A DNA stretch of 64,000 nt from Antedon mediterranea (taxonomy: Eukaryota > Animalia > Echinodermata): assembly GCF_964355755.1 (NCBI RefSeq), contig NC_092676.1:20726871-20790870 (forward strand). The letters run 5' to 3'. The number at the start of each line of letters is the position of its first letter. Position 1 is the stretch's first letter. Both the position numbers and the translations under genes were made by a program. Under the pieces are notes generated by a model. It had not been told where the DNA came from. It was given only the letters and a program-made list of their open reading frames with translations, and did not search any database. Below are positions 1-64,000 of this stretch, one piece after another.

Positions 1-733
1 CACTTCAACTTGTGAAGGTGCGTCCAAAGAAACAAAATACAGTATAACAATAAAAAAGAGAAATAGCAATAATTATAATTGGTAAAATATTTAGATTTTA
101 ATCCGCGTTTTCCTCTCCATTGTTTAATAACCAATTAATACTAATAATAGGCTGAACATGTGGGACGCTGGTTTGGATCATTTGGAGCTAAGACTATTCG
201 TGAAAGAAATAAAATCGCGTCTGTACATTCATACACGTTTACATTTTTTTTTTTAATCTATGATACTGACAACAATTATATATTTTTATTTTAAAGAAGT
301 TAAAAACATTGTCGTAACATTGATGTTGTTATAAACTCAATAATCATAACTAAACATCTCCATCTATTATACAATACAAACCATACAGTGCAATACAAAA
401 TTAGTATAATTAGTTTTAATGTGTTATTGACCTTCATTGTTATCATGACTCATCTATTAAGCGATTCAACGAATAATGTGCACAAAATAGGACAACATTT
501 TGTATGCCTAATTTTATAATGATATTAAAATATAGGATATATTTTTTTACAAATAACGCTTTAATTTATTAACATTGATAATTATGGTACTATACGCCTG
601 TTGAAGAAGTAAAAAGTGAGTGAAAAAATATAAACTGGTCACATTTCTATACACTGACTTAGTGACTAAGTTAAATACTAAGCGGAAAACATCTAAGTAA
701 AACGATATCTAAACACTACAGCAACTAACACCA

Positions 734-2077
734 TTAATCTGAGTTTGCATGTTTTAGTGCATTCAAAATGTCGATTCGATAATCTCGTTTCCAACTTTCT
801 GCTGAGATGTTGCATATGTGTACAATGCATTCTATGCATTTTCCTTCGATTGATAGCTTTACGTCAAAACGTGTCGCAAAAGCATATCTATCCCCATTTG
901 TTTTCATGCGATAGTCCCAACCGTTACCGAGAAGAAAGTCTAATTGTCCAAAACTTTCTGGCGAATATTCTTCACGAAAGCAGTTACTGGCATTAAGACC
1001 AAATAACTTGGTATCTATGCCCTGTTCGTATAATATACTAAACCGCACTTGCCTTTTTTTGCTTGATAAACCGCGCTGTATCTGTTGGCGTATACACCTT
1101 CTTAATGTAGCTTTTCGCTCTTCATAAGTTGCCTTTGAAATATTAATAAGAGAATTGACTCGTTCTTCGGCTGCTTGAAGTGTGGCACGACGGCGTTCAG
1201 CCCACCTTCCGTTAATTTTTAGCTTAACAGGCTTGGGATTTGTTAGGACTTCGGTAAAGGATCCTACCATCAATAGGTTATATGTTCCCAATTTTCGAAG
1301 TTTGTAACCACGTCCCTCAACAATTCCGTCGTTATTATTGATATGTAACGATGTTAAAAAATGATAAATATCGTCGTCATCGGTTGGTAGAAATGATCCA
1401 ATTGAAACTAGTTCATCTTCTAAAACACATTGTGTAATTTCCTCGCTTTCTTTCGTAGTTCTTTGATGTGACAAATTTGCATTTTCCAACGTTGCTAGAT
1501 GTCGACTATGCTTATTTTTCATGGGTTTTCGTTTACTCTTTTTGTGTTTAGAGCTAGACACTTTTTGTGTTGATGATTGAACATCTTCTAGATTCGGATT
1601 AATATCTTCTTGGTATTTGTAACAACTTAGGACATCACAGTACCCAATAACGATGTGTTTGGTTTCATCACTAAAATCGTAAGATATTTCTAATATTTTA
1701 CGAAAGGGATCGTTGATAAGGACATTGCCCTCTTGTTGTTTCGATTCTAGGTTAAAATTGATTGTATCTCCTTCGACCAAATTCTCATGCTTTACCGTAC
1801 ATCTCATTGGCGCACTCAAGTCATGGACCTTTCTCTTCCGATTTCGCTTACCCAGTTTTTCCATCGGCGTTGTTTTTCGAATGTAATTTGGTAACAGAAA
1901 TGTGTCATGTTTTGACTGCCATCCTTGATAGTGAACACCAAAATGATTACCATCAGGTAATATGTTTATTCCAGTGATAGTTGCGGCTCTCCAAACACCA
2001 CATTCTTCATCCAATACCTCTACATTTTGACCTATGTAAAACTGTGCCATAGAATTCATGCCGCTCTCTTCTTCCAT
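734..2077 (-). CDS. Tudor/chromo-barrel domain protein (447 aa, single coding exon), likely transposon cargo
   Basis: N-terminus FYIGQNVEVLD...WRAATI...FGVHYQGWQSKHDTFL matches the Tudor-knot/chromo-barrel pattern (VHYxGW as in MRG15/PHF20). It is followed by basic NLS-like tracts and a C-terminal domain I cannot name (LDFLLGNGWDYR). Confidence 0.75.
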   Translation of the reverse strand: MEEESGMNSMAQFYIGQNVEVLDEECGVWRAATITGINILPDGNHFGVHYQGWQSKHDTFLLPNYIRKTTPMEKLGKRNRKRKVHDLSAPMRCTVKHENLVEGDTINFNLESKQQEGNVLINDPFRKILEISYDFSDETKHIVIGYCDVLSCYKYQEDINPNLEDVQSSTQKVSSSKHKKSKRKPMKNKHSRHLATLENANLSHQRTTKESEEITQCVLEDELVSIGSFLPTDDDDIYHFLTSLHINNNDGIVEGRGYKLRKLGTYNLLMVGSFTEVLTNPKPVKLKINGRWAERRRATLQAAEERVNSLINISKATYEERKATLRRCIRQQIQRGLSSKKRQVRFSILYEQGIDTKLFGLNASNCFREEYSPESFGQLDFLLGNGWDYRMKTNGDRYAFATRFDVKLSIEGKCIECIVHICNISAESWKRDYRIDILNALKHANSD

Positions 2078-2375
2078 TGTTTAGGTTCCTGTAAATAACA
2101 ATACAGAATAATAATGTTTGGGCAGGAGGATACTTTATAAAAACCCGCATTTATAACACCGTCCAATCAGAAAGCTTCCTGTCTACGGTAATGCGGTTAC
2201 CAAACAATGAGCTTATCACCTGATTAGGCCTACCTGACCGTGATGTAATCAAATGTGGCAATCCCAAGCGTTATAATGTATTTATTTAATATAAATTTAC
2301 AGTAATCAATGTAAGCCTACTAATCGACTTATGAAGAAAGCCGGGTAACGCAAAACTCACAAGATAGGAATATGT

Positions 2376-5300
2376 TTACACCTCGTTAACATTACGCCGA
2401 GCACGTTCGTTCCACACTCTTTGTTGGTCTTCTGGGCAATCTTTCCATAGTTGGCTAAGGGCTCTGTTTCTCTCAATAAAGTTTAGTTCTTGCTGATGAC
2501 GCATTACCTAATATTTAAATAAATTATAATTAATTATAATACCATATTGAAATACCTCTTAAATGTAAGTTGACAGTAACAATTAACGATTACAATAATT
2601 ATATAATAAAAAGCAGTACGCGTATTCAAGGAAGAAATATATTTCTGTATGTTATTAAATTCATAATATTTGTATAGCCTCATACCTAAGGCCATTTTAT
2701 GATTTTTTTTATTGAGTTTCCATTTTAAGTGCAATGAAATCGGTTCAGGAAAGAGTAAACATTGCATTTTTTTCCCCTGATCGGTTATAAACATAGAACT
2801 ACTTGTATTAATAATCATGTTATACCTCCGGAATGTTTTCTTGAACGAATAAGTTATATCCCGACAACCTTCTTTTTTTCACAGGGTTTGGTTTTCTATG
2901 TTTCCTTTTTATTTGGACATTTTGACAAATTTCTTGCATCGGTTGTCTTTGTTGACGTTCTTTTTTCTTTAACATTGTATATGCGCTGGCATCTTTGCTG
3001 TTAAACATAATAACATGATAATCAATTGGTTAAACATAATTATACTGTACGTGGAAAAGTTATCAGCCCGGGAATGTTGTTTAAAAAATGACAACCGACT
3101 CAGTATGCGTTTTGAAAATGTGTGTGTGTGTTATTCGAACCGTATGTTAACTTTTTAGAAAGGATAGAAAATTCAGATTTCAAGATCTGATTCATTCTGC
3201 TCTTAGATGGGTCGTTCCATTATTAAACAGAGGGTAAGAAATCTGAAATACGTTTAGGCCTACTTTAAAATATAGCACTATACCAGGGAAGAGTACGTGT
3301 AATTTCGATATTCTCTGATCTAATTATTTTTATGCTAAAGATAATATTTCTATTAATTAATTTCTTAGCTAATGTAGTAAATTTAATAATTAAATAAAAA
3401 CATTATTCAAATTATGCAAAAACCACCTTGTAATGCATACACTATTTAGGTTGTATTATTTCATAGAGATATTATAGTGAACTATAATATCTCTATGATT
3501 ATATATACTATTTAAGATATATACACTCTGATTAATAATGGAATGATCTATTGGAATGGATAGGTAAAAACCTTAATGAGAAAAAAACACCACTAACCTG
3601 TTATATTGTATAATGCTGCTGTCGGGTACTACCGACTGAATTGTTGTCAAAGGTGCATTCTGAAGTCTGGAAATATTCAATTTATAGTCTTCTAATGACG
3701 TAAAAGTACCCTTTTCAAGATTGTCCAAGATTCCATCACTTAAAATGTCCACACCTCTTCTAAAACATTCGGCCAATGTCGAGGCAACTTTTTTGGGCTC
3801 TCTGTCACATTCTGCTTGTGTTGTTATAACAATAAAATATGTAAGAGGAACATTATCTTTTGGGAGTCCCCTCCACCAATAGCTTCCACCATATTTACTG
3901 ATGATTTCTTTGATGATTTCGTGTTGTTTATACAAGCGTCCCACTATGATGATTGACATGCCTTCCAGAGCATTCGATGTATCTTGAACATTTTGAAGGG
4001 CTGCATTAGATTCATCGTAAATCCCTTGGTCAAGTTCATTGGTGGCATCCGTGTTGTGATCATTGTCCGGTTCGTTTAGTTCGGACTCATTTAGGTCATG
4101 TTCACCCGGATGGTCAGGATTCTCATCTCGATCGTCATACCCTTCAAGAGACATTCTGTTTTGCACGTACGTATTAAAGCGCTCCTGTGCGTCTACTGGA
4201 CACTCACGCATTCGGTGGTGGATCATCTGCCATTGCCATTCAAATATTTTCAGAATTGGATCTTGTTTGGATGATCCACCACCGCGAGTTGTATGTTGAT
4301 AGAACCTACACATGTCCATATAGTGAGAACGTTCCCCCTGTTCTGTAGACAGCCTCATAACGGAGTGAAATGGGTAACTTTGTAGCAACTGAGGGACAAC
4401 ATCGATGAACTTCATTTCATAACCTGTGAATACATTTCCATACTTGAAAAGGATCAAACGATGGAATTTATCGGCATGATTAGTGTATTTAGAAATTTGT
4501 TCATGTCCATGGCCCCACGAATAATCATCCACCGATACACTACCATTCTCTCGTCCTGGGAGAATAATTACAGACTCGTCTCTTAGCATCCTGTACATGT
4601 GAGCAAGATGGTGAAAAATTAGTTGTTGCAGAAGTTTTACACTTATAGATCTGGAAGGCAGATTTAGAATACGCTGAAGATCTACGGGAAGTAATCGCGA
4701 ATGAGGTGTGTCTGGTAAAACATTATCGAATATGTCCGGGAAAGGAACGACATCATATGAAAAAAAGTCAGTAATTGCCGGGTATACAATTAACTGTGCT
4801 GACGGTTTGTTTAAGGTGATCTGTTTAAGTTGGTCATCTTCAAACACTATGTGGAATCCCCCGTCTTTATTTCGGTGAACACCGCGAGCCTTTATATTGT
4901 TGACCAAATGTTGCAGTCGGACTTTGCGTAGAGCAACTCCATTAACTCCCGGAATTAACGACGTGATTCTAAATGGTAGAAATTGTGTTCGTAAAAAGAT
5001 GTATATAAAACACGCTTACTAAAAAAAGTATATCAACATAAATATCAAACACATTTTACACAGCTTTATCTCAGTTTTAAACATTAATTAATTCAATAAT
5101 AATATTGCAAATATTTGCGCGCAGTAGCGTCTCGTTTAAATTAACGCTTGCTTCTTGACGTGACGAATATGGACGCTAAAGCGTTACCGTATTTGTTGTC
5201 TACAATTGTTCAGATTAATTTACAAAATATTTCTAAATTTCTAGTGAAAATGGATGAAAATGTATACTATATTTTGAAGGTACTTACGTATGAATGTCTT

Positions 5301-7626
5301 GTATAACAAGTCGCAACTGGTGTTCAACAATTCGTGTTATACCATGGTCTATACAAATACCAAAGTGTTCAAGTGGCACATCTAACAGTCGATGTGGATG
5401 TACCCTCCCTACTCTTTTTCTTACATCTGATCTTAGTCCACTCTCCTCATCATAAAGCTTATTTTCCTCCTTGATTGTTTCAATATAAATATTGAATCCA
5501 TCGGCGGTTAGTGGTCCTATCTTACCTCCAAGCACAGCATCTTGAAATTTGGCATCCGACGATATAAATATTTTGTGTCCGTGCTCTTGCATGTGACAAA
5601 TCCAATCGTTTATATAATTATTTTTGTCATATCTTAAATTAGATTCGAGATTGGCCCTGTCGTCCCCAAAATAGAAAATTGCCACTCTCCAAAAATCTTT
5701 AGGGCTATGAAATCCTTTACCTTTTAGAGCCTGAACATTATTAATGTTCGTAAGGCCAAACACCGTTGATTGTCGCCTTCCCATTATACGAGCATCGCCA
5801 TATAATCGCCACCACTCTTCACCATCTACATAATGGTACACATACATTAATGCATCATGTAAAGAGTGAGGATCAATAAATATGCCACCAGGTAGAGAAG
5901 TGGGCTTCATGATCCGCTCGAATTCCGCTTTATACTTTTTCTTGAGCACACGCACTTTGTTATTTGCGGCAAATAATCCAGGTAGTCGCTTTCGGAGCCA
6001 CGTTAATGCCTCGACGACATTAGTTGTGTCCTCCAAAAATAGTAAATCGTGTTCATTTATTTGGAGTTGTTTAATTTCATCTCTACAATAGAAATTTAAA
6101 AAGTGAAAGCTCAGTAAGTTATAAATCTGCATCCAGGCACAGGATGGATTAAATGAATGGTTCAATTGTTAACGATGTTTTTAATCAATACGGTATTACT
6201 AAATAGACTACTTGTTGTAATTATACAAAATGTCTTACTTTACAATTTCATCAAAAAGAGATTGTGTGGCATGTTTGGATGATTTGCCCTTTCTAAGGAT
6301 TGTTACTAAATCTTCGGCAGAGAGTATTCCGTCCCATTCTTCATCTGTAGAAGCATTAGAGATGTCCCTATAGACATAAATAAACAGAATTCAATAAATC
6401 ACATTATTGGTCTAAAGTTCGCTTTTCCATTCCTGTCAGATTGTAAAATTTAACTTTAAAAATATCAAAAGAAAAAAATTGCCATTTTCATTTCAAACAA
6501 GTGAACGTCACGTGAGGATTCTATATATCTTAATAATGTGGTGTCATGCCCATGATAGTAATGAATTCTGTAATTATTGTTTTTCAATTTATAAATATTA
6601 AAATACTTACCAAGCTAGTGCATCTAATAGATCTGATTTATCCCCGCCGTGGATATTCGTTGCAATTTTCAATATTTCTTTTCTCTGATCTATATTTCTG
6701 CGGGAAATTCTATGGCCCAACTGTCTAGTTTTGTTTTCTTGTGGTCCATCACCGTTGCCAATTTCATTGTTGTACTGCCTAATCAGGTTGCTTGTTGATT
6801 TTAGTTTATTTTGTACGCGCTCATCTTGTATCATATCTGCGATAGGCATGGGATTGTTGACAACAGATGCGGTGCACTTTTCTATAATAAAGTCACGCAA
6901 TGTGTACAAATTTAACGTATATTCGTCAATATCATCGATGTACGTCTGCAACATAGCTTCCGTATCTCGAAGATGTCCACCACTTAAAATGAGAACGGTG
7001 AAGTACGAAACGCTAAGGTGGGTGCGTTGGCTTTTGTTTTGTGGTAGACTTTCATTGCGCACAACCAATCCGTTTTGATAAATATAATAATCGTACCGTT
7101 TCCATCCTCGATGTTTCTGTCCATTAAACATTCCTAAGAACTTCATAGCATCAGCTACAGCAACATAATAACTCCCTTCTCTTTCACACCCAGGTATATT
7201 ACATGGCCATCCCAGTTGCTCTGTTCCTCTGTACATATTGTTTGGATTATCTGACAGTCAACCCGAAAAAAGAAAGAAAATAAACTTACATTTTACCAGC
7301 TAATTACACTAACAATAACAATTAGGCTATATATTCTCTTTACTATGAAGAAAGTTACAGTACAGAACCCGAACAGTTCTGTAGGAAAATATTGAATTAG
7401 TTAATTAAACTCATACTATAAGGCCTAACAGAGTACTTGACATTAATCTGTAGTTCAGTAACATTAGTATAATAGGCCTAATAGATTTCACAGTAAATTA
7501 CTGACATCTCAGCATTATGTAAATTTAGCATATTGTTAACAGTGTAGGCCTATCTAAATTAGATAAAACGTATATAGTACAGTCTATCATAACTGTATTA
7601 AAATACAATTAAACTTACTTTGGCAT
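2376..7626 (-). CDS. Multi-exon RAG1/Transib-like DDE transposase with C-terminal BRCT-like and HMG-box domains (~1088 aa)
   Basis: GT-AG exons with compatible phases: 7626-7619, 7378-7359 (these two tentative), 7250-6611, 6367-6239, 6082-5288, 4968-3598, 2997-2826, 2507-2376; total 3267 nt, open. Motifs YGDAR, SSDAKFQDAVLG, CIDHGITRIVE, TGYEMKFIDVVP and STEQGERSH occur in RAG1-core order. LEGMSIIIVGRL...IISKYGG is BRCT-like. RRLSGYNLFVQE...LSQLWKDCPEDQQRVWNERA is an HMG box. Confidence 0.72.
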
Positions 7627-8340
7627 CTTTGTCTTGAATTAAATATAATGGTTGAGAAGTATTATAACGCGGCTTTCACAGACTTTCACTGGAAAGGACT
7701 GAAGAGAAGAGAATGTTCGCGCCAAAATTTGCAGGAGTGGTGTGAAGGTTATCTCAATGTACTGTACAGTACATTAGTCTTCGCCTTAGGGAGTTGTTTG
7801 CCTTGATTTTAAACACTTTTCAATATGTAATATACCCCCCTTTCTACATAGGCTTTTTATTTACTTAATTCATATACATAAAATACTAAGGCCAATGTAT
7901 TACATTTTGCTTGTAGTTTTTAACGACTATATAAGACGTCGATCTTCACAAATTCTCCCGGGCCTGATACCTCTTTACCTCCAGACGTGTATCTCACTTA
8001 TACGCCTTTGGTTTTTGTTTTGTTTATATTAAATTGTACCTTATTTCTTATGTTTGGTAGCCTTTTGAGTTTCGCCGCTCTTAATTATAAATTTTCTTTT
8101 TCACAAACTCTGTACATAGAAAAGAAAAGAGAAATAAATGTTCTGAAATTAAATGAATAAATGAACCAAAACAACCAACCAACCAACCGCCTCTCACCCC
8201 CTTTCCACCCTCCCACCCAAAGACCTCGCATTCGGGAGATTTTGATTTCGATACTTGAGTAAAAATACCGGTTATTTATATATTATATATTTATATTATT
8301 ATATATCCCATTACCCTAGAAACCACAACCCCTCTAACTA

Positions 8341-8735
8341 TTTGAAAAAAAGTGTGCTATCCATTTTAAAAAGTGTGCTATCCATTTGAAATAGCGTGCT
8401 ATCCATTTGAAGAAAGTGTGCTATCCATTTGAAATAGTGTGCTATCCATTTTAAAAAGTGTGCTATCCATTTGAAATAGCGTGCTATCCATTTGAAGAAA
8501 GTGTGCTATCCATTTGAAATAGCGTGCTATCCATTTGAAGAAAGTGTGCTATCCATTTGAAAAAGTGTGCTATCCATTTGAAATAGCGTGCTATCCATTT
8601 GAAATAGCGTGCTATCCATTTGAAAAAAGTGTGCTATCCATTTGAAATAGCGTGCTATCCATTTGAAAAAAGTGTGCTATCCATTTGAAGAAAGTGTGCT
8701 ATCCATTTGAAGAAAGTGTGCTATCCATTTGAAAA
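8341..8735. repeat. Tandem array of ~18 copies of a 21-22 bp unit (TTTGAAaaAGTGTGCTATCCA / TTTGAAATAGCGTGCTATCCA)
   Basis: Directly visible; invariant GTGCTATCCATTT core, with about three unit variants alternating. Confidence 0.97.
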
Positions 8736-9411
8736 ATTAAATTGATTAAATAATCACTGTATATAATTAAGTTTTCCAAGTTGCTTCTTAAATGTAATTT
8801 ATCTCAAATAGTAGGCTGCATGTTGATGAAGACGATACTGATAAAAAGCTCTTCTCTTCTCATTTTAATAGTTCTTTTGAAACAATGGCACGAAACTATA
8901 GTTTTTAAAGTGATTTATTTGATTTGATTTATTTCGAAATATCCATAAATATATAAATATACAATACAATTTGATAAAACAAGAGACGGCAAGTACCAAA
9001 TAATCTTACATAGGCCTATAGACAAAAGAAATGGATTTAACAAGGATAACACACAAAAAAAAAATTAATTAAACTTTTGAATGTTAATTGTGATGGTAAT
9101 TAATGAGTATTTATAAAGAAGTTTTTTGAAAGAAGAGTACCGGAAATAGTAAAATTACCTAATCAGTACTGATACAGAACATCCTTTGTATTAATTAGGG
9201 CTACGTCCCAGGGATCCCGAAATTAATAAGATAGACAATACAAACAACTGAATAAGAAAATAAACCGATTTTACGCATGACCGGATAATTGCGGTCTGTT
9301 TTTGATCTAAAGAAGTCGTTCATAACACGGTAAATGAATGTTAATTCCAATCAGGCCGCATTTTAACATGGATTGCATTGGTGCATTGTAGCTTAATCTA
9401 AGAACATCAAC

Positions 9412-10974
9412 ATGAATGTCTCCGATGGTAGTATACATGCAGAAATTTTAAAGAATTTTGTACCTGGAAAAAAGTTTGATAAAGTTCCAGTATCTGTTGT
9501 GAAAGATTTTCTGAGTCAAAAATACCCACATATTACTACAAATCAGAAACGCGGACGTCTTTTTAAACAGGCTTTTGCTAAAGTAGGCCATTCAATTCGA
9601 CGAATGAGACCTGGATCGAGGAAAGGAAGAAGTGAAACATGTTATTATTATGTTCGTAAGCAAGTCGTCATAACCGAAGATAATGATAACGTTGAGGATG
9701 AGCGACAATCTGCTGTAATGGAAACAGATGAGAAACAGGCAAAGGAAATAAATGAAAAAAGAAAAGCAGAATATCTGAAGCTTAGACTAAACCAAGAACA
9801 GGAGATGCGATGCCAAGCTATACAGGAATTGACCAAAATAAAACCAAATTCCTATATTCACATTCCACGAATAGACAGTCGTCATTTAGTTGATTTGAAG
9901 AAAACAATTGGGAATGGGTCTTTTGGATGTGTGCAGCTTTATCGGTATCGTAAAGATAATGTAGCTGTAAAAACATTTAAAAATTATGAAGGCCTCAGTG
10001 ATCACAAGCTTAGAGAGGCAATATTTCGAGAAGCAAATATGATGCTTTCGTTTATTCCTCATCCCAACATTGTCAAATTTTTAGGATATATTGTGTCTCA
10101 TTCAGCCAAGAACATATCATTAGTGACGTTGTTTGTTGACGGGAAAACACTAAGTTCACTTACTAAGACGGCAAGGAATCATCCTGAAAAACGCGGTAAG
10201 AACTGGTATTAATTTAATTTTTGTGGCTTTTATTTGATTTTCTTTACTATTATATGAAAACAATGCAAGTATAAATAACCTGATTTTTAATATTTTATTT
10301 TAATATAATTTAGGTCTACCCTGGACAGCAATGATGAAGCATGTAGCGGAGGGCTTGATTGCCCTTCACGAACAAAATATCATTCATAACGACCTAAAAG
10401 AAAACAACATTGTAATTAGAGAAGCAGACTACCGTGCAGTAATTATAGATTTAGGTATACCGTTTTAGGTTTGTGTTGTTTTAAATGATATAAATATTGT
10501 GTGCCTCTATACTACAGTAGGCTTATATCATGTTTTTAACAAAATATTGATAATAATGTCGTGGCAAATTTTCGACAAAAAGCCAATGAATGATGGGCGG
10601 GGGACGGGATGGCGACACAATTCAACCACTGACCAGATAATACTCGAATATTCTTTTTTTTGACAGGCAAATCGACATTCGCAGATAAACCTAAATGGAA
10701 TAAATACAGTTTAGGGTCTAAGCAATCTATTGAGGAATATAAGAAGAAATATCCGTGGATAGCGCCTGAATTAATTGAGGACAAGGTTCTCCCGTCTTCA
10801 TTTACCGATTGTTATTCCTTTGGTTTTGTCTGCAAATCGGTATATATACACACGCATTCCAATGACATTATACTTCAACAAATATGGGAAGCCACATATA
10901 GATTAATTAATGATCGTTATGATTTGTCCAGTATAATGCAATATTTTAATTCTGTTACCATCAACAATTGTTAA
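9412..10974 (+). CDS. Protein kinase (~410 aa, 3 exons) with RFX-like winged-helix N-terminus and coiled-coil linker
   Basis: Exons 9412-10195, 10314-10454 and 10667-10974 join in frame. Kinase motifs: IGNGSFGCV, VAVK, HPNIVKFLG, HNDLKENN, IDLG, WIAPE, DCYSFG. N-terminal GRLFKQAF...RRMRPGSRKGRSETCYYYVRK resembles the RFX GKLIRxVF...RRLGTRGxSKYHYYGIR segment. Confidence 0.85.
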
Positions 10975-12372
10975 CAGATAATGCATCTTTTTTGGGTGTA
11001 GGCTGTAACATGGATTAAATTCTTTAATCCATGGCTGTAATGAGCTAGCCTCAAGGTCTGTGTAAATTCTTCAAGTCAAAGGTCGCACACTGTCTTAACA
11101 TTATTTGTATTTAATTATTTCTCCATTCATTTATGAAACATTAAACCATTACTGTAAAGTTTATAAATAAAGATTTTTTTTATTTTTTGCTGTGGGAGAG
11201 TTGGTGTCTGAGAGAGACCAAATAAACTAAAAAATTGCCGTCCTCATTTTTTCGGAGCTTGTTTTATATTAACAATAAATGAACATGAACAAATATAGAA
11301 TCTTAATGGCTTTTTTTTTTTGGTTTGTTTTATATTTTATATCATATCAAACTTGTATCAGTGGACCCTCATGTGATTGTAGGCCTAAATCGATTGTGTA
11401 GACATACAAATAGCAGTATCTGAGCATGCGTAAATAATAATGTTCTTAATACCAGGGAGTTGTTATTAGTACAGTACTCGTCGTCCAAACCATTAATGAT
11501 AATAGCTACTTTGTAATAATAATTGATTGGTTTATCAGCAAAAAAGCATGAACCATGGAGGAAAAAATCAAGATCAAACGATGCCAGTGCACCTAAAAGT
11601 GACTCCAGTCAATTGCGAACATAGGCCAAGTTAATCACGGCGATGCCGGGGGTTTCCGCTATTTCTATGAAGTAGCCTAAACCTAGGCCTAAGCCTGCAT
11701 CTATCATCTTTATAAACTCCATTATTATTATTATTATTTGAAGAATTACATGCCTTGACCAGGGAATTATAAAATGTATAGGTCCATGTTTTGACGACAC
11801 ACAAAGTAGCACATTACAGTAAGATAATAATGACGTAAATACTATTAAGTAACTTTCTTGGCCGTCATTGGATAATTTTAGGAAGTACGTCCTACTCACT
11901 CAGTCACTGCTCTATTTACAAATGAAGGGTTCTAATTGGTCAGCTAACAGCACACTGCTTGAGGCAGTTTAAATTCTCCTTGAAACCGTCCATAAAACAC
12001 GCCATTACTCATACATCTGTCGTACCGCTAATGACCGAAAACCTCACTTTTTGGGGTTTTCAAACGTAACGCTATCCGGGGCTCCTGCGCCTAATGAATT
12101 TATTGTACCCGATTAAACCATATAAATTAAAGAAAAGACCATTTCAACGAGAAAACCATTCTCTGTCTGAAATTCATACATAGGTTTTTGTTAATTTTAA
12201 ATCTTATTTCCTTTTTTATAAAGAAAACTACAAAATGACATATTCAAAGTTTGATTGTATGCATCTTTAATTTTCATATTTTGGGATCTTTAAATTAACT
12301 ATAATTTAAAATGTTCAAATGTACCAAAGTACATGAACTTATATGCATTTTTTATTTGTAACTTAAACATAC

Positions 12373-13159
12373 CTTCTTTTTTGTATTTTAGTAACACTAG
12401 TTGGAATCCTGAGAGGAGCTAACAATGCAGTTGGTGACCCTGGGCTTGTTTCTTGGTTGGCTGTGTTCAGTGGATTTGCTTTGTATTGACTCTGTACATA
12501 GCTTGTTGCTACAGATAGCATCCCCAAAATGGCCGCAAGGACACAAACAAATATTATTGCACCAAATAACTCTAAAAATAGATACATCAAGAATAAGTAT
12601 TTTTGACATACATTACAACAAAACATCATTGAAACCATGGAGAGGTATAAAATATGTTGAAACCAAGCTTCCTGTATGTACATGGCTTGTTGCTACAGAA
12701 CATCCCCAAAAAGTCTGTTGTATTGTGTCACATTGTGATGTCATTATTGTTGCATGCTCTACAACTTCCTGGTAAGTAAATACAGTATGTAACTTTCTAT
12801 TGAGCCTAAGATTCTCAGTGCAATTCAGTATCGGAGAGAATATTATACAAATAATGAATGAGTTGAATGGGAAGAATATATAATGAGTTGAAATATTGAC
12901 TGTTATACTTTCAATGAATGGACATGTTCTAAATTAAACTTTTATTCAACTAACCCGCTGTTTTTTGGTACACGGAAAAAAATACTACGACCATTTAATA
13001 GTGCATATTATTGCATGCCATGTAACCCACAATCGTCAAATCAAATTACAGGAATTATTTAGGTGTTATATAATATATTTTACCTCCTGCTGTTTCTATC
13101 ATCCAACTCTTAAATAAGAATTGACCAACATCTGCTGAGAAGTAGAATGACATGTGCAT
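12373..13159 (-). CDS. Copper transporter, SLC31/CTR family (5' coding exons only)
   Basis: Exon 13159-13084 (MHMSFYFSADVGQFLFKSWMIETAG, typical CTR MxMxFYF...LF..W) splices in phase to exon 12571-12373 (ELFGAIIFVCVLAAILGMLSV..., TM1). No MxxxM/TM2-3 exon was found in the window. A probable upstream exon ends at the donor near 15427. Confidence 0.8.
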
Positions 13160-13189
13160 CTAAAAAAAAGAAAGAAAGTTAATAGTAAA

Positions 13190-13800
13190 AGACCCCTTCC
13201 CTGCAATTTTGGACGTTTTTTGGAAAATAATTAAACATTAAACCATGTCATTCCTTGTCTTAAATGTACGTTTTGTGGTAAATTATGATAAAAAGTGAGA
13301 AACAATGCACTACCTAAGTAGCTCGCGGCGATCGACCTCTCGTGGAGGGTCTTAGGCCTAGCCTAGCTAGGCTTAGTTTTGTAGGCCTAGCTGGTAAACA
13401 TCGGTAACGTACGAACATCGTACGCTACCTATATACCTAGCCTGACGTTGTATAGTTGCTGCATTAATTGTATTTCTATTTTTGCCAGACTCCGTTGATA
13501 CAAATTGGGGAAAACCCGGTATTTTCGCTGAAAAGTTAGGAGTCTTCCATTTGTTTTGGCCTCACGATCGATCGAAAAGTGGGCGAATTACAGGTGAAAA
13601 ACAAAAATATCAATCCGCGCGCAATGCATTTTGGGATTTATAGCGGGCCGCTATAATTATTAGAATCGACTTATTTTTCACATTTTTAACCGTTTAAAGA
13701 CGAAAAAAGTTATCGCAATAGGACCATATAGTATTATTTTTACATTAAATATAGTTTGTGATCTTAAAATTAGATCTAAAAAACGTAGGGAATGGGGCTT
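13190..13800. mobile_element. Non-autonomous DNA transposon (Kolobok-like, ~610 bp), copy 1
   Basis: Imperfect TIRs AGACCCCTTCCCTGCAATTTT / AAAACGTAGGGAATGGGGCT, flanked by TAAA/TTAA; near-identical to 14475-15100 in reverse orientation. Confidence 0.85.
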
Positions 13801-14474
13801 TAACTTACTGTACTCCATTCATGTTTCCGTACAATTACTGTACACTATATTTTGCATTTAATACCCACTTTTAACGTCAATCCTAACCATCAATTCACAA
13901 ATTTTGTGGTTGATGGTACAGTAAGTGACATGAAACAAACAAAAATTAACTTCATGTGGATATACAGAACCTTGGTAGAACATTTAAAGACAAGTATTAA
14001 TATAGGAGTAACAAAAATACTGTACTAAGCTTGAAACCTGCTTAATTGTAATGATATTGAATACAGTAATTAGATTACATTTATAATGAGTTCTGCACCA
14101 CGATGGTTTATTTTTGCTGGTAGTGGTACTACAAAAACAACTCAATAGCCACGTCTTATTTTAGAATTAGATCTACAGGTCAAATATTGTATATAGTTTT
14201 GATTTTCAAATTTATTATAAAAAATGGTACTATAAGACATACTGAAAGGAAACATTAAAACCCATTTTCTGTAACTGTTTTTTCATTGTAGGGAAATCAT
14301 TTTCTGAAATAAAATTAATCAATCAATAATAATATATTAATAATGATTATATAAAGGCAGATGAAACAAATAGCAACATTGGTTCTCTCATTACAAAAGT
14401 AACAACTTTACACTCACCATTTTTTGGTGGTGGTTCCTAAAAAGAAACTTTTGTAAAATTTTCTATTTATTTAA

Positions 14475-15100
14475 AGCCCCATTCCCTACGTTTTTTAGAT
14501 CTAATTTAAGATCACAAACTATATTTAATGTAAAAATAATACTATATGGTCCTATTGCGATAACTTTTTTCGTCTTTAAACGGTTAAAAATGTGAAAAAT
14601 AAATCGATTTTAATAATTATAGCGGCCCGCTATAAATCCCAAAATGCATTGCGCGCGGATTGATATTTTTGTTTTTCACCTGTAATTCGCCCACTTTTCG
14701 ATCGATCGTGAAGCCAAAACAAATGGAAGACTCCTAACTTTTCAGCGAAAATACCGGGTGTTCCCCAATTTGTATCAACGGAGTCTGGCAAAAATAGAAA
14801 GACAATTAATGCAGCAACTATACAACGTCAGGCTAGGTATATAGCTAGCGTACGATGTTCGTACGTTACCGTTGTTTACCAGCTAGGCCTACAAAACTAA
14901 GCCTAGCTAGGCTAGGCCTGAGACCGTCCGCGAGAGTTCGATCGCCGCGAGCTACTTAGGTAGTGCATTGTTTCTCACTTTTTATCATAATTTACCATAA
15001 AACGTACATTTAAGACAAGGAATGACATGGTTTAATGTTTTTAAAGTGATATATATGTATTATTTTCCAAAAAACGTCCAAAATTGCAGGGAAGGGGTCT
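14475..15100. mobile_element. Non-autonomous DNA transposon (Kolobok-like), copy 2, inverted relative to copy 1
   Basis: TTAA-AGCCCCATTCCCTACG...TGCAGGGAAGGGGTCT-TTAA; AG termini with TTAA target. Confidence 0.88.
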
Positions 15101-16126: not shown

Positions 16127-18425
16127 TGGTCGAAGCGGCCGCCAACCAAAGCGGCCGCCAGTTTAATATCGTCATTTGTATGGAACGCCATGTGCGCTTT
16201 AATCTTTGATTGCCGTTGTCAACGCCATGGCCTATGGCGAGTTGAGTTACAGCTAAATAAATATAAGCCAACTCATGTACTATCAAATCTTTATATTTCT
16301 ATAATAATTAAGTTTGCCTGCCGATAAATCAATGTATATTTTATTTGTATTTACTATTAACTAATACATATATCGAAATATATTTTGCCGAACCTTTATA
16401 TCTCGTTTACATACTATTGAATCCTTATACAGTATTGCAATAATAATTTACGTATACGATATTGCCGAATCTTTATATCTCGTTTATATACTATTGAATC
16501 CTTATACAGTATTGCAATAATAATAATTTACGTACGGTATTGCCGAATCTTTATATCTCATTTACATACTATCGATTTTTATACAGTATTGCAATAATAA
16601 TTTACGTACGGTATTGCCGAATATTTATATCTCATTTGCATTTAACTATCGAATTTTATACAGTATTGCAATAATAATTTACGTACGGTATTGCCGAATA
16701 TTTAAATCTCATTTACATTTAACTATCGAATTTTATACAGTATGGCAATAATAATTTACGTACGGTATTGCCGAACCTTTATATCTCATTTACATACTAT
16801 CGAATTTTATACAGTATTGCATTAATAATTTACGTACGGTATTGCCGAATCTTTATATCTCGTTTACATACTATCGAATCTTTATACAGTATTGCAATAA
16901 TAATTTACGTACGGTATTGCCGAATATTTATATCTCGTTTATATACTATCGAATCTTTATACAGTATTGCATTAATAATTTACGTATACGGTATTGCCAA
17001 ATCTTTATATCTCGTTTACATACTATTGGATCTTTATACAGTATTGCAATAATAATTTACGTACGGTATTGCCGAATCTTTATATCTCATTTTTACATAC
17101 TATTGAATCTTTATACAATATTGCATTAATAATTTACGTACGGTATTGCCGAATCTTGATATCTCATTTGACATACTATCGAATCTTTATACAGTATTGC
17201 ATTAATAATTTACGTACGGTATTGCCGAATCTTTATATCTCGTTTACATACTATTGAATCTTTATACAGTATTGCATTAATAATTTACGTACGGTATTGC
17301 CGAATCTTTATATCTCATTTTTACATACTATCGAATCTTTATACAGTATTGCATTAATAATTTACGTACGGTATTGCCGAATCTTGATATCTCATTTACA
17401 GACTTAATCAAATCTTTATACAGTGTTGCATTAAATAATAACTTACGTACGGTATTGCCGAATATTTATATCTTGTTTACATACTATCGAATCTTTATAC
17501 AGTATTGCATTAATAATTTACGTACGGTATTGCCGAATATTTATATCTTGTTTACATACTATCGAATCTTTATACAGTATTGCAATAATAATTTACGTAC
17601 GGTATTGCCGAATATTTATATCTCATTGACATACTGTACTATCGAATCTTGGTTTTTATTATTAGTAATAGTGTGTGTTATACATTTAAGTGTTATTCCA
17701 TTGTAATACATTGTTTGTGTTTTCAATAAAGCAACATGGGACGCCCACCTAATGTGCAGCAGCACTATTGCTGGCCGTCAGTCGAGTTATTAGCAGAAAT
17801 TCGCGTAATTAATTACTGTATCAAACAGACACTTTCATCTTATTTTAGTATTTAAAACTCATTTTCAATTGATCAATATTTAAATATCTGAAGTAATAAA
17901 ATAGTGTAGGATATTAAATAAATTGCTGTCATCATGTTATTGTATTAAATTATGATTGCGAACACTACTATAGTTACTTTACTAATTAATTAATATACAA
18001 TAACAAATATTTTTAATTATTAATATATTTATATATTTTGATATACTTTATTGATTGGTTTATTTATATATAATTCCTAATAATTGGCTTATTATTATAT
18101 TATATTAATATACAATATAAACACCACAATGTATTTTATAGACTTTATTAAACATATGTATATCATTTAGAACAGTTAAAATAAGTAATCATCGATTCGC
18201 CATTTCGTTTAAAAGAACGTACGCGTATCACATTCAATCTGTAAAAAAAAAGAGAATAAATTACATAATAATGTAGATTGTTATTTACGTCCGAGGTAAA
18301 GAAAACCTGTCGAAACAATGACAATCAAAGATTACAAAACAACGACAATCAAAGCGCACACGGCGTTCCATACAGATTACCGTTATTGAACTAGCGGCCG
18401 CTTTAGTTGGCGGCCGCTTCGACCG
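16127..18425. mobile_element. Non-autonomous TIR element with TA target duplication (Tc1/mariner-pogo-like), ~2.3 kb
   Basis: TA-TGGTCGAAGCGGCCGCCAACCAAAGCGGCCGC... and ...GCGGCCGCTTTAGTTGGCGGCCGCTTCGACCG-TA; imperfect inverted match over ~90 bp. Confidence 0.85.
16380..17650. repeat. Minisatellite with ~79 bp unit, about 16 copies
   Basis: Unit TATTGCCGAATCTTTATATCTCGTTTACATACTATCGAATCTTTATACAGTATTGCATTAATAATTTACGTACGG repeated; explains the repetitive ORFs here. Confidence 0.96.
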
Positions 18426-18670
18426 TAATCCATGTAAGCCTGTATATATAATAAATTTAAGAGTGTGAATGAACATAATTATTATAATATTAATAGCAAT
18501 CTGCAAGTTTATAAACTTTTTTTGATTACAGGTAAAGTGCAATGAAGTTGATACCCGAAATGCTGACATCTAATTAATTTAACAACAATTTCGAGAGTTG
18601 GTGTGTCGCCAACACAAAATTCAAGAGGTCATAATTATTTTAACATACATGGTAGTCTGTTGAAATAAGT

Positions 18671-28714
<10,044 letters not shown>

Positions 28715-39438: not shown

Positions 39439-42400
39439 TCAAACAATTCTACATCTATCTGAAACTAAACGAATGGTTCGACTTTTATTTAATGCTGTTA
39501 AAAGTTCGTATTCGGCTGGCATGTGGTGATTGGTGGTATAATTCAGTGTCCTGTTGTCGTAGTAATGATGTTTTAACGGTTTGCCACTCGGAGATTTATA
39601 AAATGGATAAAAACCATATAACGAAACATATTGACACATTGACCCAGCTGCTGTATACATGATTAACCCCAGAGATGGGTTTCTTATTTTCCAAAATCTG
39701 AAAGAAAAGTCATTTGTTGTAGGCTATGAAGAAAATTATATTTATGCATGCATAATTTAATGTGCTGATGATGTCAATTTATTCCTGTTATCTTTAATTA
39801 TGTTCATTTTCAGTATGCATTATTATTATTATTTTACTCGTTGAACATTCTTGTAAGAAACGTTAAATCCCCAGCTCAAATCCACTGTCTTACAAAAACG
39901 GAAGTTAATGAAAGAATAGTAAGATTAAGATGATACTTACTTTGTAACTAGTGGTAGCATACCTCGGTACGAATATACAATTCTAACTGTTAAATTATTC
40001 TGTTTGATACCTGCTACAAGATTATGTGCGTAGCTTATATTCTTTTCTGCGTTCAATTTAGAAATCCATATATATGTGTCATTAAGCTCTTTAAACGTGT
40101 CGTATGAAGTTTTGTAGCAACTATTTGAAGTGTTTGTTAGACATATACTGCTTTCGATACTGGCGGCCCCATTGAGCACCATCATATCTATTTTACCACC
40201 AACGTCTTGTTCAAAACCAATAGTTTGTGCAAGATTTCCTCTAAAAACAAAGTCGTGTTCATCTATTTCACGTCCACAATTGCTGTTTAGTAGATTACCA
40301 GCACTGCCTACAACTGCACAGGATCCTTGCAGAGGAATACTGTCGATACCTTCTGGTAATTTTGTCATTCGTTTGTTCTGTTTGAAGCCATCTTTGTAAA
40401 TTAGTGTTAATAGAGACGGTTTAAATCCAGCCTTCTGAAGTCGTTTTCTTTAATAGAATACAAACTTATAAATTCTGGGCTTATAATTGATTTAAAAAAA
40501 CTCTAGACAGGCATGTTCGAATTCAGTATGAGGCATATGTATACTTTTTGTTCTATTTCGTGAGAACAAACCACTTTTATTTCATTCAAACCACCGTAAA
40601 TTTTACATGTAAAATCAGTATTCAAAAAAGTAATATAGCATATGCATACTAAAAACTCTCTAATATTATTATTATGAAAAACAATTAAGGAAGAATTTTA
40701 GCATTTGCCCTTTATATTTTTCAAATTTCCCTAAATTTAGACTTCGAATATGCCATTTTACAGTTTAATAAAGTCATTCCCACTTAAAATAGATGAAATA
40801 AACGGTTAAGTTTAACCAAAACCATAGTGTGACAGACAATTTGAATATTATTCGTTTAGTAATCATAATAATAATATTCTCTCTGAGCCAATATGCTGCT
40901 TTCATTGTATTTGTTTGTGTCATTATTATTAATGAATCCGTATCTTGTAAAAAGTACACCAAGATCATTGTATTATATTATACAACTTATATAGAAATTC
41001 AACAGTTTGTATTTATATACAATAAATGTTTCGTCACCAAATCTGATTTTAATTGGTGTAGAATTCTTTCAAGTCTATCTGAAAGAGTAAAGCTCTGTTT
41101 GGTATTTGCTATTTAAGCAGAGACCATGCATACATTTGTGGTGGCAGAAATTAGATGATCAAAAGAAGGCTGCAATAGGCGGGGTAGAAAAAGAAAATAG
41201 ACATATATAGTCAAGTTCTATTTGATATGATAACTAGGAAGGTATAATGCCACCGTGTATTATGATCAGTGAAATGATTACCGTATCCAGTAAAAACGAA
41301 AGCAAAACTTACCTCATATCTAATGCTTTGCTTTCTTTAATGTGATTAGTCAATACTTTCCTACAAACAAAATCATAGGTTAAAATTATAATGGATACAC
41401 ATAAACTAAATACTCTTTTGATAAGAAGTAATAACTAAGATTATGGTACTTATCGGAAAGTTTCGTTTTGGCAGCTCCCTACCAATTAATTTCATCCGGC
41501 AGTGTGCTAATTTTAAATTTTTTAAACCACGCTAAAGACTTCTTTTCGAAGTGTCTTAATTTACGGTTATTATACATTACATCATACATCTTAATGTTGA
41601 CATTTCCTACTTTTTCCAGCTTGCTTTGTTCGCTTATATAAATGCGACTCTTGTTTATATATATAAAAGTATCTCTTCGGAGATCCCGCCTGCGATTTTT
41701 TTTTTCGTAATTAAGTTGGGAACCCCCTTATGAAACGTCACAAAATAAACATGAATAATTCATCAGTTAAATTTTCTTGTTCCGTGTGCACCCAAGCGTA
41801 TAGCAACAAGAAGTGATTATACACAAGTGCGGTACGATTCTAGGCCTATCTCCGCTGTGGTTGCCGCGTGGGATTTCATAAAAGAATAGCGGCGTTTTGT
41901 CAGGGGCGGATCCAGGATTATTTTTGCGGGGGTGGGGGGGGGGGGGGGGGTGGCACACGCGATCGTAGAGAGAAAATGGGGAAAGCCCAGAAAAAAATGC
42001 ATTTTATGGTGTTCGAGATCACTAACGCACTCTGATTCGATCATCTGTAAAGGGTCTTGCACAACTCTTCACAGTTCCAAACTTCAGGGTGGCGAAAGTA
42101 TTTTTCCCAAAGACTTTCTCTGAAAATCCGAGAGAGGGCGTCATATTTCGTCCCATTGTGTAGGGGGAGCATTATGCATCTCTCTGCGCTCGCCTTTTGA
42201 ATGAACATTTTAATATGCTGCGCTTTCCGAATGAATTGCCGATTCTTACAAAGGGAGGATATCGCCTTGTTGTAGGCCTAACTACAGTACGTATACGCCT
42301 TTTTCACGAAACGGAAGACATCTTCGATCGATGACAAACAATGCCGTGCAACTAAGCGTAACCAACAGAAATAACATAACGTTTTCAGGGGATTTCAGGA

Positions 42401-45400: not shown

Positions 45401-48400
45401 GATGTTCGGCGATATATGCACACGTGTGTACTCACGACGTCGATGTAAACAAACAGCCAACTTACTACTTCCGTCTGAGTGTATTGCATTTTGGGTAATG
45501 ATGACGTTTTGCTCGACGACAACCCATAGATTTAACCGGTTATTTCGGAGCACAAATTGAGCAGAAACGCGGTCTTGTTATTGTTATCTATTTTTAATCT
45601 ATTTAAAAATAACCGGTTAAATTGCGTTATGCAGCAGAAACAGACCCGATCGACGCTTGGACCACAATGAAAATAAGTTGGAATCGTTCACCTTTGTTCC
45701 CGGCCTCAAACCCCTCCCCCGCTCATTGCGCACGCGTCTATTCCTCCTCTACTACTAGGCCTAGTACTAGTACCAGATAGAGAGTACTACTACCCTAGAC
45801 TATTCATATCAGTTATCCGTGGGTCTCTTATTTTATAGCAAAAATATCGCAGTATAGCCTAAATAAAGTATTATTATTACACAGTAATAGGTTAAATGAT
45901 GTTGCACCTTCTTTTTTTTTGGACATGATGAATAGTGTGTGTCACGACGGTGGAGGTAGTCTGGGTTCCAGACGGAGTTTTGTCTTAATATTAGTAAAAA
46001 GATAAATATTTTGGCACATATGGCGTTTCATACGTATACTACTTGATTTTGGATACTCCTAAAGGGGTCGTCAAACACACGGCCAGCATGTGGTTCTTTT
46101 TTGGCCAGCCTGTGGTCCGAGGGCGCTAGACATTTGGCCAGCCTGTGGTCCCGAGGGCACTAGCATGAAAACACACAGCCCGTCTCTGTGATTCTTTTTT
46201 GGCCAGCCTGTGGTTGGGGGGCGATAGACATATCGGCCAGCCTGCGGTCCCAAGGGCGCTAGACATAACTTTTCCATGCTTTTCTAAAGTGAGCCCTCTA
46301 CAGCTGTTTTCATTTTATAAAAACTTCACTGTGCTTTGACAAGAATATGTGTGGTCTTAATGTATTATATTAGATTATTATTTTTTATATTAAATAATGT
46401 TTTTGGACACATTTACGGCCGCCATGTTGTTGGTTCTTCCTCCTGTTGGAATCACTTTTCAGTCTGGAGTACGCCCTCTGGTGTTCTTATTACATCTCTC
46501 TCTGTCTATGGCTCTCTGCTGGCTGACCGAAATGTCTAGCGCCCTCGGGACCACAGGCTGGCCAAATGTCTAGCGCCCTCGGACCACAGGCTGGCCATAA
46601 AAGAACCACAGGCTGGCCGTGTGTTTGACGACCCCTGCTCGGATACTCCGTCTGGGGAAACACGCACAAGTCACGTGGTTTGACACCAAGAATTCTTGGT
46701 GCATACGATTATCCGGTTGACTAGTTTCAGCTGCATGCGATTGGCTACTCACTCGTACGCCGTTTTAATATTCATATTTCAGAAGTTCAAAGACTCGCAT
46801 ATGTTACGCTTAGACAACGTGTACTTGGTACATTGATGAAAGTTTCTGAAGGCTAGAAATGATTTTATATGCCTAGTAGTTCGGTAAACATTTGATGGGA
46901 TTTTTCCCAAGAACATGAAAACTCGTCTTGATAAGATAGGCTGCTTCTCCGCAAATCAAACATTGAATGGATCATTTATTACGCGGAGATAATTTGATTT
47001 AATTCCCACCCAGACCCTGTCCTGTTCTGTGTAGTGTGTGGTGTAGCTTTGTTGTGTGCCGGTGGTATGTAGGCCTACTTTATTGGCGTTTTATTTGGCA
47101 GGTCATACGTGCGAGTTGAGTAGTAGGACCTACGAAAGAGGCCTAGGCCAATGACTAAACAATTAATAAAAAAACAACTTGGCAACACGATTTATCAACA
47201 GTCTCGTCTCGTACATTCAGCACTGTACGTACTCGATCTTTTTCATTTTGAAACAAGATGATCATTGGTTGATTCGAAATCTATATTTACATACCGCCCG
47301 CCCCATATAGCCAAATACGGTATGATCACTACGTCATTCTTATCGGACGTTTGCGGTCTACAAATCGATTTCTATACGCGTTTCACAAGTCTGTATTTTC
47401 AGACAAAAATCGCGGTCGCAATAAAAACAAATAAATAAAAAAGAAAATACAGACTTGGGGCAAGTCTACGGTGGAGGCAGCAAGCAAATCAAACTTGTTA
47501 CGTACACGCATATTAACCGATAGTTCGCACACGCACGCGCTGTTGGATGTATCATTATCTGTACAACAACAGCACGTGTGCTTTGTTTTGTCCAGACAAT
47601 TCCAAATATTAAAAAGTGTCTGTTGAGCTATCGTGTTTCGGTAATAAAACAGACTGATAGAAGAAGTTACCCAGTTTCTAATCTAAAAACTTTTTTTTAA
47701 ACTTTTTTTTTTACTTCTGTTTGATACCTGCTACAAGATTATGTGCGTAGCTTATATTCTTTTCTGCGTTCAATTTAGAAATCCATATATATGTGTCATT
47801 AAGTTCTTTAAACGTTTCGTATGAAGTTTTGTAGCAACTATTTGAAGTGTTTGTTAGAGATATACTGCTTTCGATACTGGCGGCCTCATTGAGCACCATC
47901 ATATCTATTTTACCACCAACGTCTTGTTCAAAACCAATAGTTTGTGCAAGATTTCCTCTAAAAACAAAGTCGTGTTCATCTATTTCACGTCCACAACTGA
48001 TGTTTAGTAGATTACCAGCACTGCCTACAACTGCACAGAATCCTTGCAGAGGAATACTGTCGATACCTTCTGGTAATTTTGTCATTCGTTTTTTCTGTTT
48101 GAAGCCATCTTTGTAAATTAGTGTTAATAGAGACGGTTTGAATCCAGCCTTCTGAAGTCGTTTTCTTTAATAGAATACAAACTTATAAATTCTGGGCTTA
48201 TAATTGATTAAAAGAAACTCTAGACAGGCATGTTCGAATTCAGTATGAGGCATATGCATACTTTTTGTTCTATTTCGTGAGAACAAACCACTTTTATTTC
48301 ATTCAAACCACCGTCAATTTTACATGTAAAATCAGTATTCAAAAAAGTAATATAGCATATGCATACTAAAAACTCTCTAATATTATTGTTATGAAAAACA

Positions 48401-61745: not shown

Positions 61746-62759
61746 TCAAGCAATTCTACATCTATCTGAAACTAAACGAATGGTTCGATTTTTATTTAAT
61801 GATGTTAAAAGTTCGTATTCGGCTGGCATGTGGTGATTAGTGGTATAATTCAGTGTCCTGTTGTCGTAGTAATGATGTTTTAACGGTTGGCCACTCGGTG
61901 ATTTATAAAATGGATAAAAACCATATAACGAAACATATCGACACATTGACCCAGCTGCTGTATACATGATTAACCCAAGCGATGGGTTTCTTATTTTCCA
62001 AAATCTGAAAAAAAAAAAAATAACTCATTTGTTGTAGGCTATGAAGAAAATTATATTTATGCATGCATAATTTAATGTGCTGATGTCAATTTATTCCTGT
62101 TATCTTTAATTATGTTCATTTTCAGTATGCATTATTATTATTATTTTACTCGTTGAACATTCTTGTAAAAAACGTTAAATCCCCAGCTCAAATCCACTGT
62201 CTTACAAAAACGGAAGTTACTGAAAGAATAGTAAGATTAAGATGATACTTACTTTGTAACTAGTGGTAGTATACCTCGGTACGAATATACAATTCTAACT
62301 GTTAAATTATTCTGTTTGATACCTGCTACAAGATTATGTGCGTAACTTATATTCTTTTCTACGTTCAATTTAGAAATCCATATATAAGTATCATGTAGCT
62401 CTTTAAACGTCTCGTATGAAGTTCTGTAGCAACTATTTGAAGTGTTTGTTAGACATAAACCGCTTTCGATACTGGCGGCCTCATTGAGCACCATCATATC
62501 TATTTTACTACCAACGTCTTGTTCAAAACCAATAGTTTGTGCAAGATTTCCTCTAAAAACAAAGTCGTGTTCATCTATTTCACGTCCACAACTGCTGTTT
62601 AGTAGAATACCAGCACTGCCTACAACTGCACAGGTTCCTTGCATAGGAATACTGTCGATACCTTCTGGTAATTTTGTCATTCGTTTTTTCTGTTTGAAGC
62701 CATCTTTGTAAATTAGTGTTAATAGAGACGGTTTGAATCCAGCCTTCTGAAGTCGTTTT
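61746..62759 (-). CDS. ST8Sia-like sialyltransferase, paralog B (last two exons; 5' exons not found in window)
   Basis: Exons 62759-62253 (sialylmotif L) and 62004-61746 (S, HYYD, VS) are open and highly similar to paralog A, including introns. Confidence 0.88.
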
Positions 62760-64000
62760 CTGTAATAGAAATAAAAACATATACATTCTGGGCTTATAAT
62801 TGAATTTAAAAAAACTCTAGACAGGCATGTTCAAATTCAGTTGCATACTTTTCGTTCTCTTTGTTAGAAGCAAACCATTTTTATTTAATTCGAACTGTCA
62901 ATTTTACATGTAAAATCAGTATAAAAAAAGTATAATATAGTACTTCAATAAAAACACTTCAATATTATTAGTACGAGACTTTGGTCTTTTTGTTTTTCAA
63001 ATCACCCTAAAATCAGACTTTGAATCGGCCATTTTTCACTTTTAATAAAGTTATTCACTTCCTTAAAAAAAAAAACGAACAAAATAATGCATTAATTTAT
63101 TACAATTTACATTACATGTACTGATAATCAATTTGAATATTTTTAATTTTGTTATTTATAGTTATACCTTTTTGTTCTGTTTCAAATTATAATAATAATC
63201 TAGTTTGTGTAATTAATATTCAAATAGATTTATCAAATGAATCCGTATCTTGTAAAAAAGCCACAAAGAGCATTATAATATTACACGGTATACAACAAAA
63301 GAAGGCTGCAATATAAGCGCGTAGGAAAAATGGAAACATCTTTATAGTCAAGTTCTATTTGCAGGAAGGTATAATAGTCTAGTAGGAAATGAGGGTTCCC
63401 ATGCACCCCTGAGGTATATTTTTTTAATGTGATTTTTTATAATCTCAAGTATGTCTAGTAACCAGATCAGGTTGTTAACATTTTCAAATCGTGTCCCATG
63501 GGGTTGTTTTTGACCCATTTAGTCGGCCATGTTGGTTTTAACAAATTAACATTTTTTCGCATTTCTCAGGAACCAGAGGTCGTAGAAATATAATTTTGGT
63601 ACCAAAGTACTCAGTATATGTATGTTTGTATATGCTGTAATGAAAGTTTTTTGTATACAATTACAGGAAGTATGATTTTTGACCTATGACCTTGTTTTTA
63701 AATGGTGTCCATATCTCAAAAACCGGCTGTCATAGAAACTTTAGTCTCAAATTATGCAGAATACCAACATTTATATTCATGGTAATGCAAAAGTTTGTCC
63801 GAAAATGATCGGAAATGATATTTTTGACCTTTGACATAATTTCATTTACATTTTTACACAATTTTGTCCATATTTGAGGGCATTAGCAGTTCTCGATAAC
63901 TAACAGACATAGAAATATAATTTTTGTGTCAAAGTACTCGCGATATGCATTTTTATATTCACACTAATGAAAGTTTTTTGTGAAAAATGACCGGAAGTAG

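Follow-up and report, generated by a model that had tools for sequence, protein, structure and literature searches.

RAG1 and the Transib transposases nick DNA and form hairpins on the flanks, and RAG borrows the host protein HMGB1. P superfamily transposases carry an N-terminal THAP domain and make 7-8-bp target site duplications (none of that length was seen at the locus described here). RAGL elements are defined in PMC7204232 by CAC ends, 5-bp target site duplications, ZnC2 and ZnH2 motifs and a RAG2L gene; PMC9435367 treats Transib subgroups and the tandem AanRAGL, and forms with BRCT, HMG or Tudor domains go unmentioned there. According to PMC12730594, the CMCT clade is defined by C(2)C and H(3-4)H motifs that follow the second D and precede the E, by CA..TG ends and by 2-5-bp target site duplications, and some IS3EU elements carry alpha-kinase genes. 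Lanisha is named in moss, with no detail in the passages of PMC8245031 consulted.

The stretch analysed here, called the window below, is 64,000 nucleotides of the Antedon mediterranea genome (NC_092676.1, positions 20,726,871 to 20,790,870). Its positions 714-11042 are probably a single intact copy of a cut-and-paste transposon, whose core is a predicted RAG1-fold transposase (gene A) with a tandem-Tudor partner (gene B) and whose kinase (gene C) is probable cargo. Its features are the following.

714..722, plus strand, candidate left end CACTACAGC, an 8/9 match to the right end, beginning 20 bp past the gene B stop
734..2077, minus strand, gene B, partner of 447 aa in a single open reading frame (2077-734)
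gene B aa 11-70, minus strand, chromo-barrel/Tudor domain, predicted fold
gene B aa 95-153, minus strand, second Tudor/KOW-like barrel, predicted fold
gene B aa 211-278, beta domain
gene B aa 290-443, conserved alpha/beta C-terminal domain with LDxLLGxxWD
2376..2507, minus strand, gene A exon 6, latter half of the HMG box; ends at its own stop, 2378-2376, or continues by splicing to AG 2088
2826..2997, minus strand, gene A exon 5, basic linker and first half of the HMG box
3207..3551, intron 4 of gene A, insertion resembling a repeat, inverted arms around a palindrome
3598..4968, minus strand, gene A exon 4, insertion domain lacking zinc motifs, catalytic E729 (4334-4332) and BRCT
5288..6082, minus strand, gene A exon 3, RNase H strands with D348 (5796-5794), D428 (5556-5554) and the CxxH histidine H498
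6239..6367, minus strand, gene A exon 2, from the splice model
6611..7236, minus strand, gene A exon 1, N-terminal alpha/beta domain and helices; begins MYRGT as in the homologue P0001
8347..8736, tandem array of a 21-bp unit, 18.2 copies, lying between gene A and the kinase, whose starts diverge
9412..10974, plus strand, gene C, 410 aa, exons 9412-10195, 10314-10454 and 10667-10974
11034..11042, minus strand, candidate right end, 68 bp past the kinase stop; read inward it is CATTACAGC

The first-pass annotation had proposed three intact genes within about 10 kb, with canonical short introns and a central tandem array; all three genes are open where it placed them, the gene A introns are GT-AG and 156-600 bp long, and the array is present. 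The extent that it gave, 734..10974, stands for the genes, and the likely element is slightly wider. It had also described the cassette as free of MITEs, which does not hold, as intron 4 of gene A contains inverted arms that are 83% alike (3207-3236 and 3522-3551) and a high-copy 38-bp palindrome (~3462-3500) at which dozens of unrelated contigs end; these insertions suggest long residence. Elsewhere in the window are a foldback element with 536-bp arms that are 98% complementary (13233-15040), a 77-bp tandem array of 16 copies (16385-17650) within 51-bp inverted arms (16121/18431), an intact 985-aa endonuclease and reverse transcriptase reading frame of a young LINE (23337-26294) and a sialyltransferase (GT29) exon in three near-identical copies (39937-40449, 47711-48166 and 62249-62830). 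Exons at 18670-20573, recognised by eye, presumably belong to a CDK8/19-like host gene.

The predicted transposase and its Tudor-type partner

The six exons of gene A join into one frame in the spliced model, and the product is ~1,074 aa long when exon 6 reads through to its own stop (2376) and 1,083 or 1,100 aa when exon 6 is spliced onward to the AG at 2088. With the latter splice (window 2009-2088) gene A would end inside the first codons of gene B, read in a different frame, and the overlapping end of gene A and start of gene B could lie on a common transcript; an in-frame fusion of the two genes was considered and ruled out for acceptor 2088, where a stop or another frame follows. The closest named homologues of the window genes are from the crinoid Anneissia japonica. 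Gene A shares 64.8% identity with XP_033095249 (P0001) across 1,040 columns, and the predicted model of this homologue contains a RAG1-type RNase H core with a D-D-E triad that is conserved across the family and intact in gene A (D348/D428/E729). The HMG box scores E 0.07 for gene A exon 6 alone and E 1e-14 for the family. Predicted fold and domain matches together support gene A as an enzyme with a RAG1-like fold, a BRCT domain and an HMG box, in agreement with the first-pass assignment. In the family alignment the zinc ligands are nearly gone, with no CxxC among 35 rows and a single row with H(3-4)H, and an invariant Y-M-x-K-x-x-D occupies the position of the zinc-site His pair. Pfam scans of the gene A exons, P0001-P0003 and 26 further homologues found no THAP domain, and no relatives were found among the viral contigs or prokaryote genomes searched.

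The family could already be catalogued as Transib, as P-like or as an unclassified Repbase/Dfam entry, since it is wide and has the CA..TG ends usual in the CMCT clade (PMC12730594). We regard this as improbable: the transposase core has no Pfam match, P0001 has no PDB match by sequence, the defining zinc motifs are missing, and among the papers listed by literature searches there was no description of this family, although paper supplements could contain members. Judged against Pfam, PDB and published descriptions, this two-gene RAG1-fold transposon lineage is apparently undescribed.

The predicted model of gene B shows Tudor barrels together with alpha/beta domains, so the Tudor-type protein reported beside the transposase in the first-pass annotation is borne out. 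W29, Y50, W53 and H57 form a candidate aromatic cage, whose fourth position is H in both crinoid proteins and W or F in relatives, and gene B is predicted to be a histone reader of the tandem Tudor type. Fold searches with its C-terminal half returned lists filled by Tudor matches, and Atlas returned nothing usable. No kelch match to Pfam was found in the window reading frames or in 42 scanned locus reading frames. A complex prediction for P0001 215-790 with P0011 200-442, run without alignments and with an uncertain partner fold, scored 0.00.

The tandem-Tudor gene is a conserved partner of the transposase. Of 56 metagenome loci, 13 have it next to their transposase, and among the 14 with sufficient flank the count is 11 (L002, L043 and L054 have flank and no partner match). 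In Anneissia japonica the homologues of partner and transposase lie on one scaffold, which carries LOC117099831-834, with 52% and 65% identity to the window genes. L003 contains both genes and has no CAYKACAG-type end motif. Its contig (1-13152) closes on itself through a 69-bp terminal overlap inside a coding repeat, giving a 13,083-bp unit that is a tandem array, a circle or an assembly loop, and a short array of ~150-bp units was read by eye upstream of its transposase.

In nine of 17 long homologues the N-terminus includes a USP-like peptidase region, marked by a C-A-x-D motif, and this region is missing from the crinoid form (P0015, P0017, P0021, P0024, P0025, P0028, P0038, P0043 and P0062; in L003 it lies at 11979-13151). 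A ubiquitin domain is also present in P0015, and an IQ motif in several long members. A Helicase_C reading frame at L047:1745-2260 (E 2e-12) lies upstream of a family transposase and may be a separate element. The family tree is a quick version built without an outgroup.

Ends, copies and the kinase

The candidate ends of the window element agree over 9 bp only, one beginning CAC and the other CAT, and bracket all three genes; TTACAGCC recurs 32 bp further inward of the right end. The motif has a background of 8.6e-5 per strand-base, so that each placement has a chance probability below 1%, for a motif that was widened post hoc. Exact CATKACAGC is also found at five minus-strand places in the window, one of them within the kinase gene. 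The repeat finder gave no long terminal inverted repeat in 1-13200, and the first 12 bases of the window have no partner beyond chance and are part of a high-copy repeat. Relatives have longer termini: inverted arms of 48 bp (90%) lie at 791 and 10069 of L038, and arms of 47 bp (81%) at 1370 and 8088 of L006, in each case with transposase and partner inside and with CAT(T/G)AC beginning both ends. The end motif of L032, CATGACAG, finishes 23 nt past the last codon of its partner gene. L039 is 100% identical (rounded) to L038 over 7.7 kb to the right-hand end, where the two diverge; the differing right flanks are as expected for two insertions, and misassembly is possible. Candidate ends at L007/L008/L027/L035, L012, L029 and L047 are single motif matches and were left out of the count. 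Neither the window nor the L038 end pair has a target site duplication, and L006 has only a 2-bp AG (1 in 16 by chance), on metagenome flanks that may be decayed or chimeric. The transposase and partner genes of these relatives lie in bounded elements that appear mobile, and the first-pass proposal that the enzyme travels with a Tudor-type protein is upheld by these inverted-repeat-bounded pairs.

Contigs from three runs of one sample give exact pieces over most of 18-7621 and only one intact version over 1-8200, and 212 bp of gene B recur unchanged in a second sample. In run X5, guessed to be RNA, 12 of 30 bins were covered. The genome also has a decayed paralogue, deleted and frameshifted, that spans only ~2855-5341 and does not cover gene B. 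Among the first 40 of 131 rows of differences, 39 are coding, with 10 synonymous, 28 missense and 1 stop change, a spectrum that indicates a dead copy decaying without selection; the catalytic glutamate is among the residues changed. A hemizygous insertion suggested by contig depth (~150 for the intact version and 240-285 for the decayed one) was dropped, because depth is no copy number.

These copies bear on whether the genes still move. A pair or trio that landed in a crinoid ancestor and was kept by the host as a single-copy, immobile locus, as with sea-urchin RAG1L/RAG2L, would account for the single intact copy, the identical gene B piece in the second sample, the linked pair in a second crinoid at 65% and 52% identity, window ends that are down to 9 bp with no target site duplication, and the tolerated intron repeats. 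Such domestication is nevertheless unlikely, given that end motifs still border both outer stops, the triad is intact, a decayed genomic paralogue is present and the relatives are bounded and apparently mobile.

Gene C consists of a ~90-aa basic N-terminal domain, a coiled linker and an intact Ser/Thr-type kinase in which the GNGSFG, VAVK, HNDLKENN, DLG and APE motifs are all present (Pfam Pkinase, E 2e-11). The first-pass annotation had called it a winged-helix kinase; the kinase part is confirmed by these matches, and for the winged helix the best Pfam score is E 0.11. PDB gave nothing useful for the N-terminus, and its Atlas feature match (0.92) is to a Pox_D5-containing cluster set with that family on 18% of members, so that a winged helix of RFX/D5 type is possible as a lead only.

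The same annotation had treated the kinase as a regular component, and here the relatives disagree, since both fully bounded loci are two-gene elements and none of the 56 related loci has the kinase, most of the others being too short to show it. The nearest locus, L032, is uninformative because only 45 bp lie upstream of its match. A search of Anneissia limited to 144-461 aa did not find the kinase. The N-terminal region has one homologue cluster, three near-identical proteins (P0012-14) on separate contigs whose matches all break off at one intron position, a pattern expected of cargo; the lengths of these contigs match none of those listed for transposase homologues. This mismatch and the absence from the 56 loci would fit a two-gene element beside an unrelated kinase, of host origin or part of another mobile element, with the motif at 11042 there by chance. 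That reading seems somewhat unlikely in view of the cargo-like cluster and of the lack of any correctly oriented end motif between the starts of gene A and of the kinase. As the kinase lies inside the candidate ends, we lean towards its belonging to the element as lineage-specific cargo.

Proposed mechanism and comparison with known systems

If the transposon works as its domains suggest, the transposase would bind ends starting CA(T/C)(T/G)ACAG and cleave with the D348/D428/E729 triad, and nicking, flank hairpins and strand transfer may proceed by analogy with RAG1 and Transib, the same chemistry being carried out without their structural zinc site. The fused HMG box could bend DNA in cis, the BRCT domain could engage phosphorylated repair proteins, with the kinase supplying the phosphorylation, and the Tudor partner might recognise histone methylation and direct or license the enzyme, in the role that the RAG2 PHD has for RAG1. 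We infer such chromatin guidance and phospho-control of transposition only from the types of domain present.

A further reading, which we hold tentatively as possible but less than evenly probable, is that the family is an undescribed superfamily-level sister lineage of RAG1/Transib, widespread in marine animals, that lost the zinc site, fused HMG and BRCT domains and independently gained an obligate reader, with a DNA-binding kinase in the crinoid form. If so, the histone-reader subunit would be a second invention of RAG2's job, and the crinoid form a self-contained, chromatin-guided, phospho-gated transposon. The origin of RAG1 has so far been argued from two relatives, Transib and RAGL; this candidate third lineage is structurally nearer to RAG1 than to HzTransib, has no zinc site and has another reader. 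It opens two questions to experiment: whether RAG-fold enzymes repeatedly come to rely on a chromatin-reading partner, and which functions the zinc site and the CAC rule serve. The intact copy with its candidate ends is usable for in-vitro cleavage assays, and an enzyme of this fold that brings along its own HMG box might serve as an integration tool.

Among described transposases, P element transposase (PDB 6p5a) gives a far weaker match than RAG1 and has the THAP domain that is absent here. IS3EU (PMC12730594) offers a precedent for a kinase gene opposite to a transposase, although its transposase is of another group and its kinase is an alpha-kinase, whereas gene C is a canonical ePK. With the CMCT clade the family shares 5'-CA..TG-3' termini (L038, L006 and the window candidates), a RAG1-like core and often multiple genes; it differs in its zinc motifs, C(2)C being in none of the 35 rows and H(3-4)H in a single one, and of target site duplications of 2-5 bp only a 2-bp AG in L006 was seen. 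Transib (HzTransib, PDB 6pqn/6pqx) matches less well than RAG1 and differs in its zinc motifs, which are missing here, in its ends, and in the additional genes and domains of the window element. The predicted RAG1-type core and the D-D-E triad are common to RAGL/ProtoRAG (BbRAG1L, PDB 6b40), at ~10% sequence identity, but the ZnC2/ZnH2 motifs are missing here, BRCT and HMG are fused to the enzyme, and the partner is a tandem Tudor protein with an unknown domain in place of kelch and PHD. RAGL/ProtoRAG and Transib ends are CAC and those of the bounded relatives here are CAT; the 5-bp duplications of the target site in both groups are found at none of the three end pairs here, whose flanks are perhaps decayed or chimeric. 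The missing zinc motifs place the family outside RAGL, Transib and the CMCT clade as published, and by analogy the element would work like a RAGL transposon, yet without RAGL membership.
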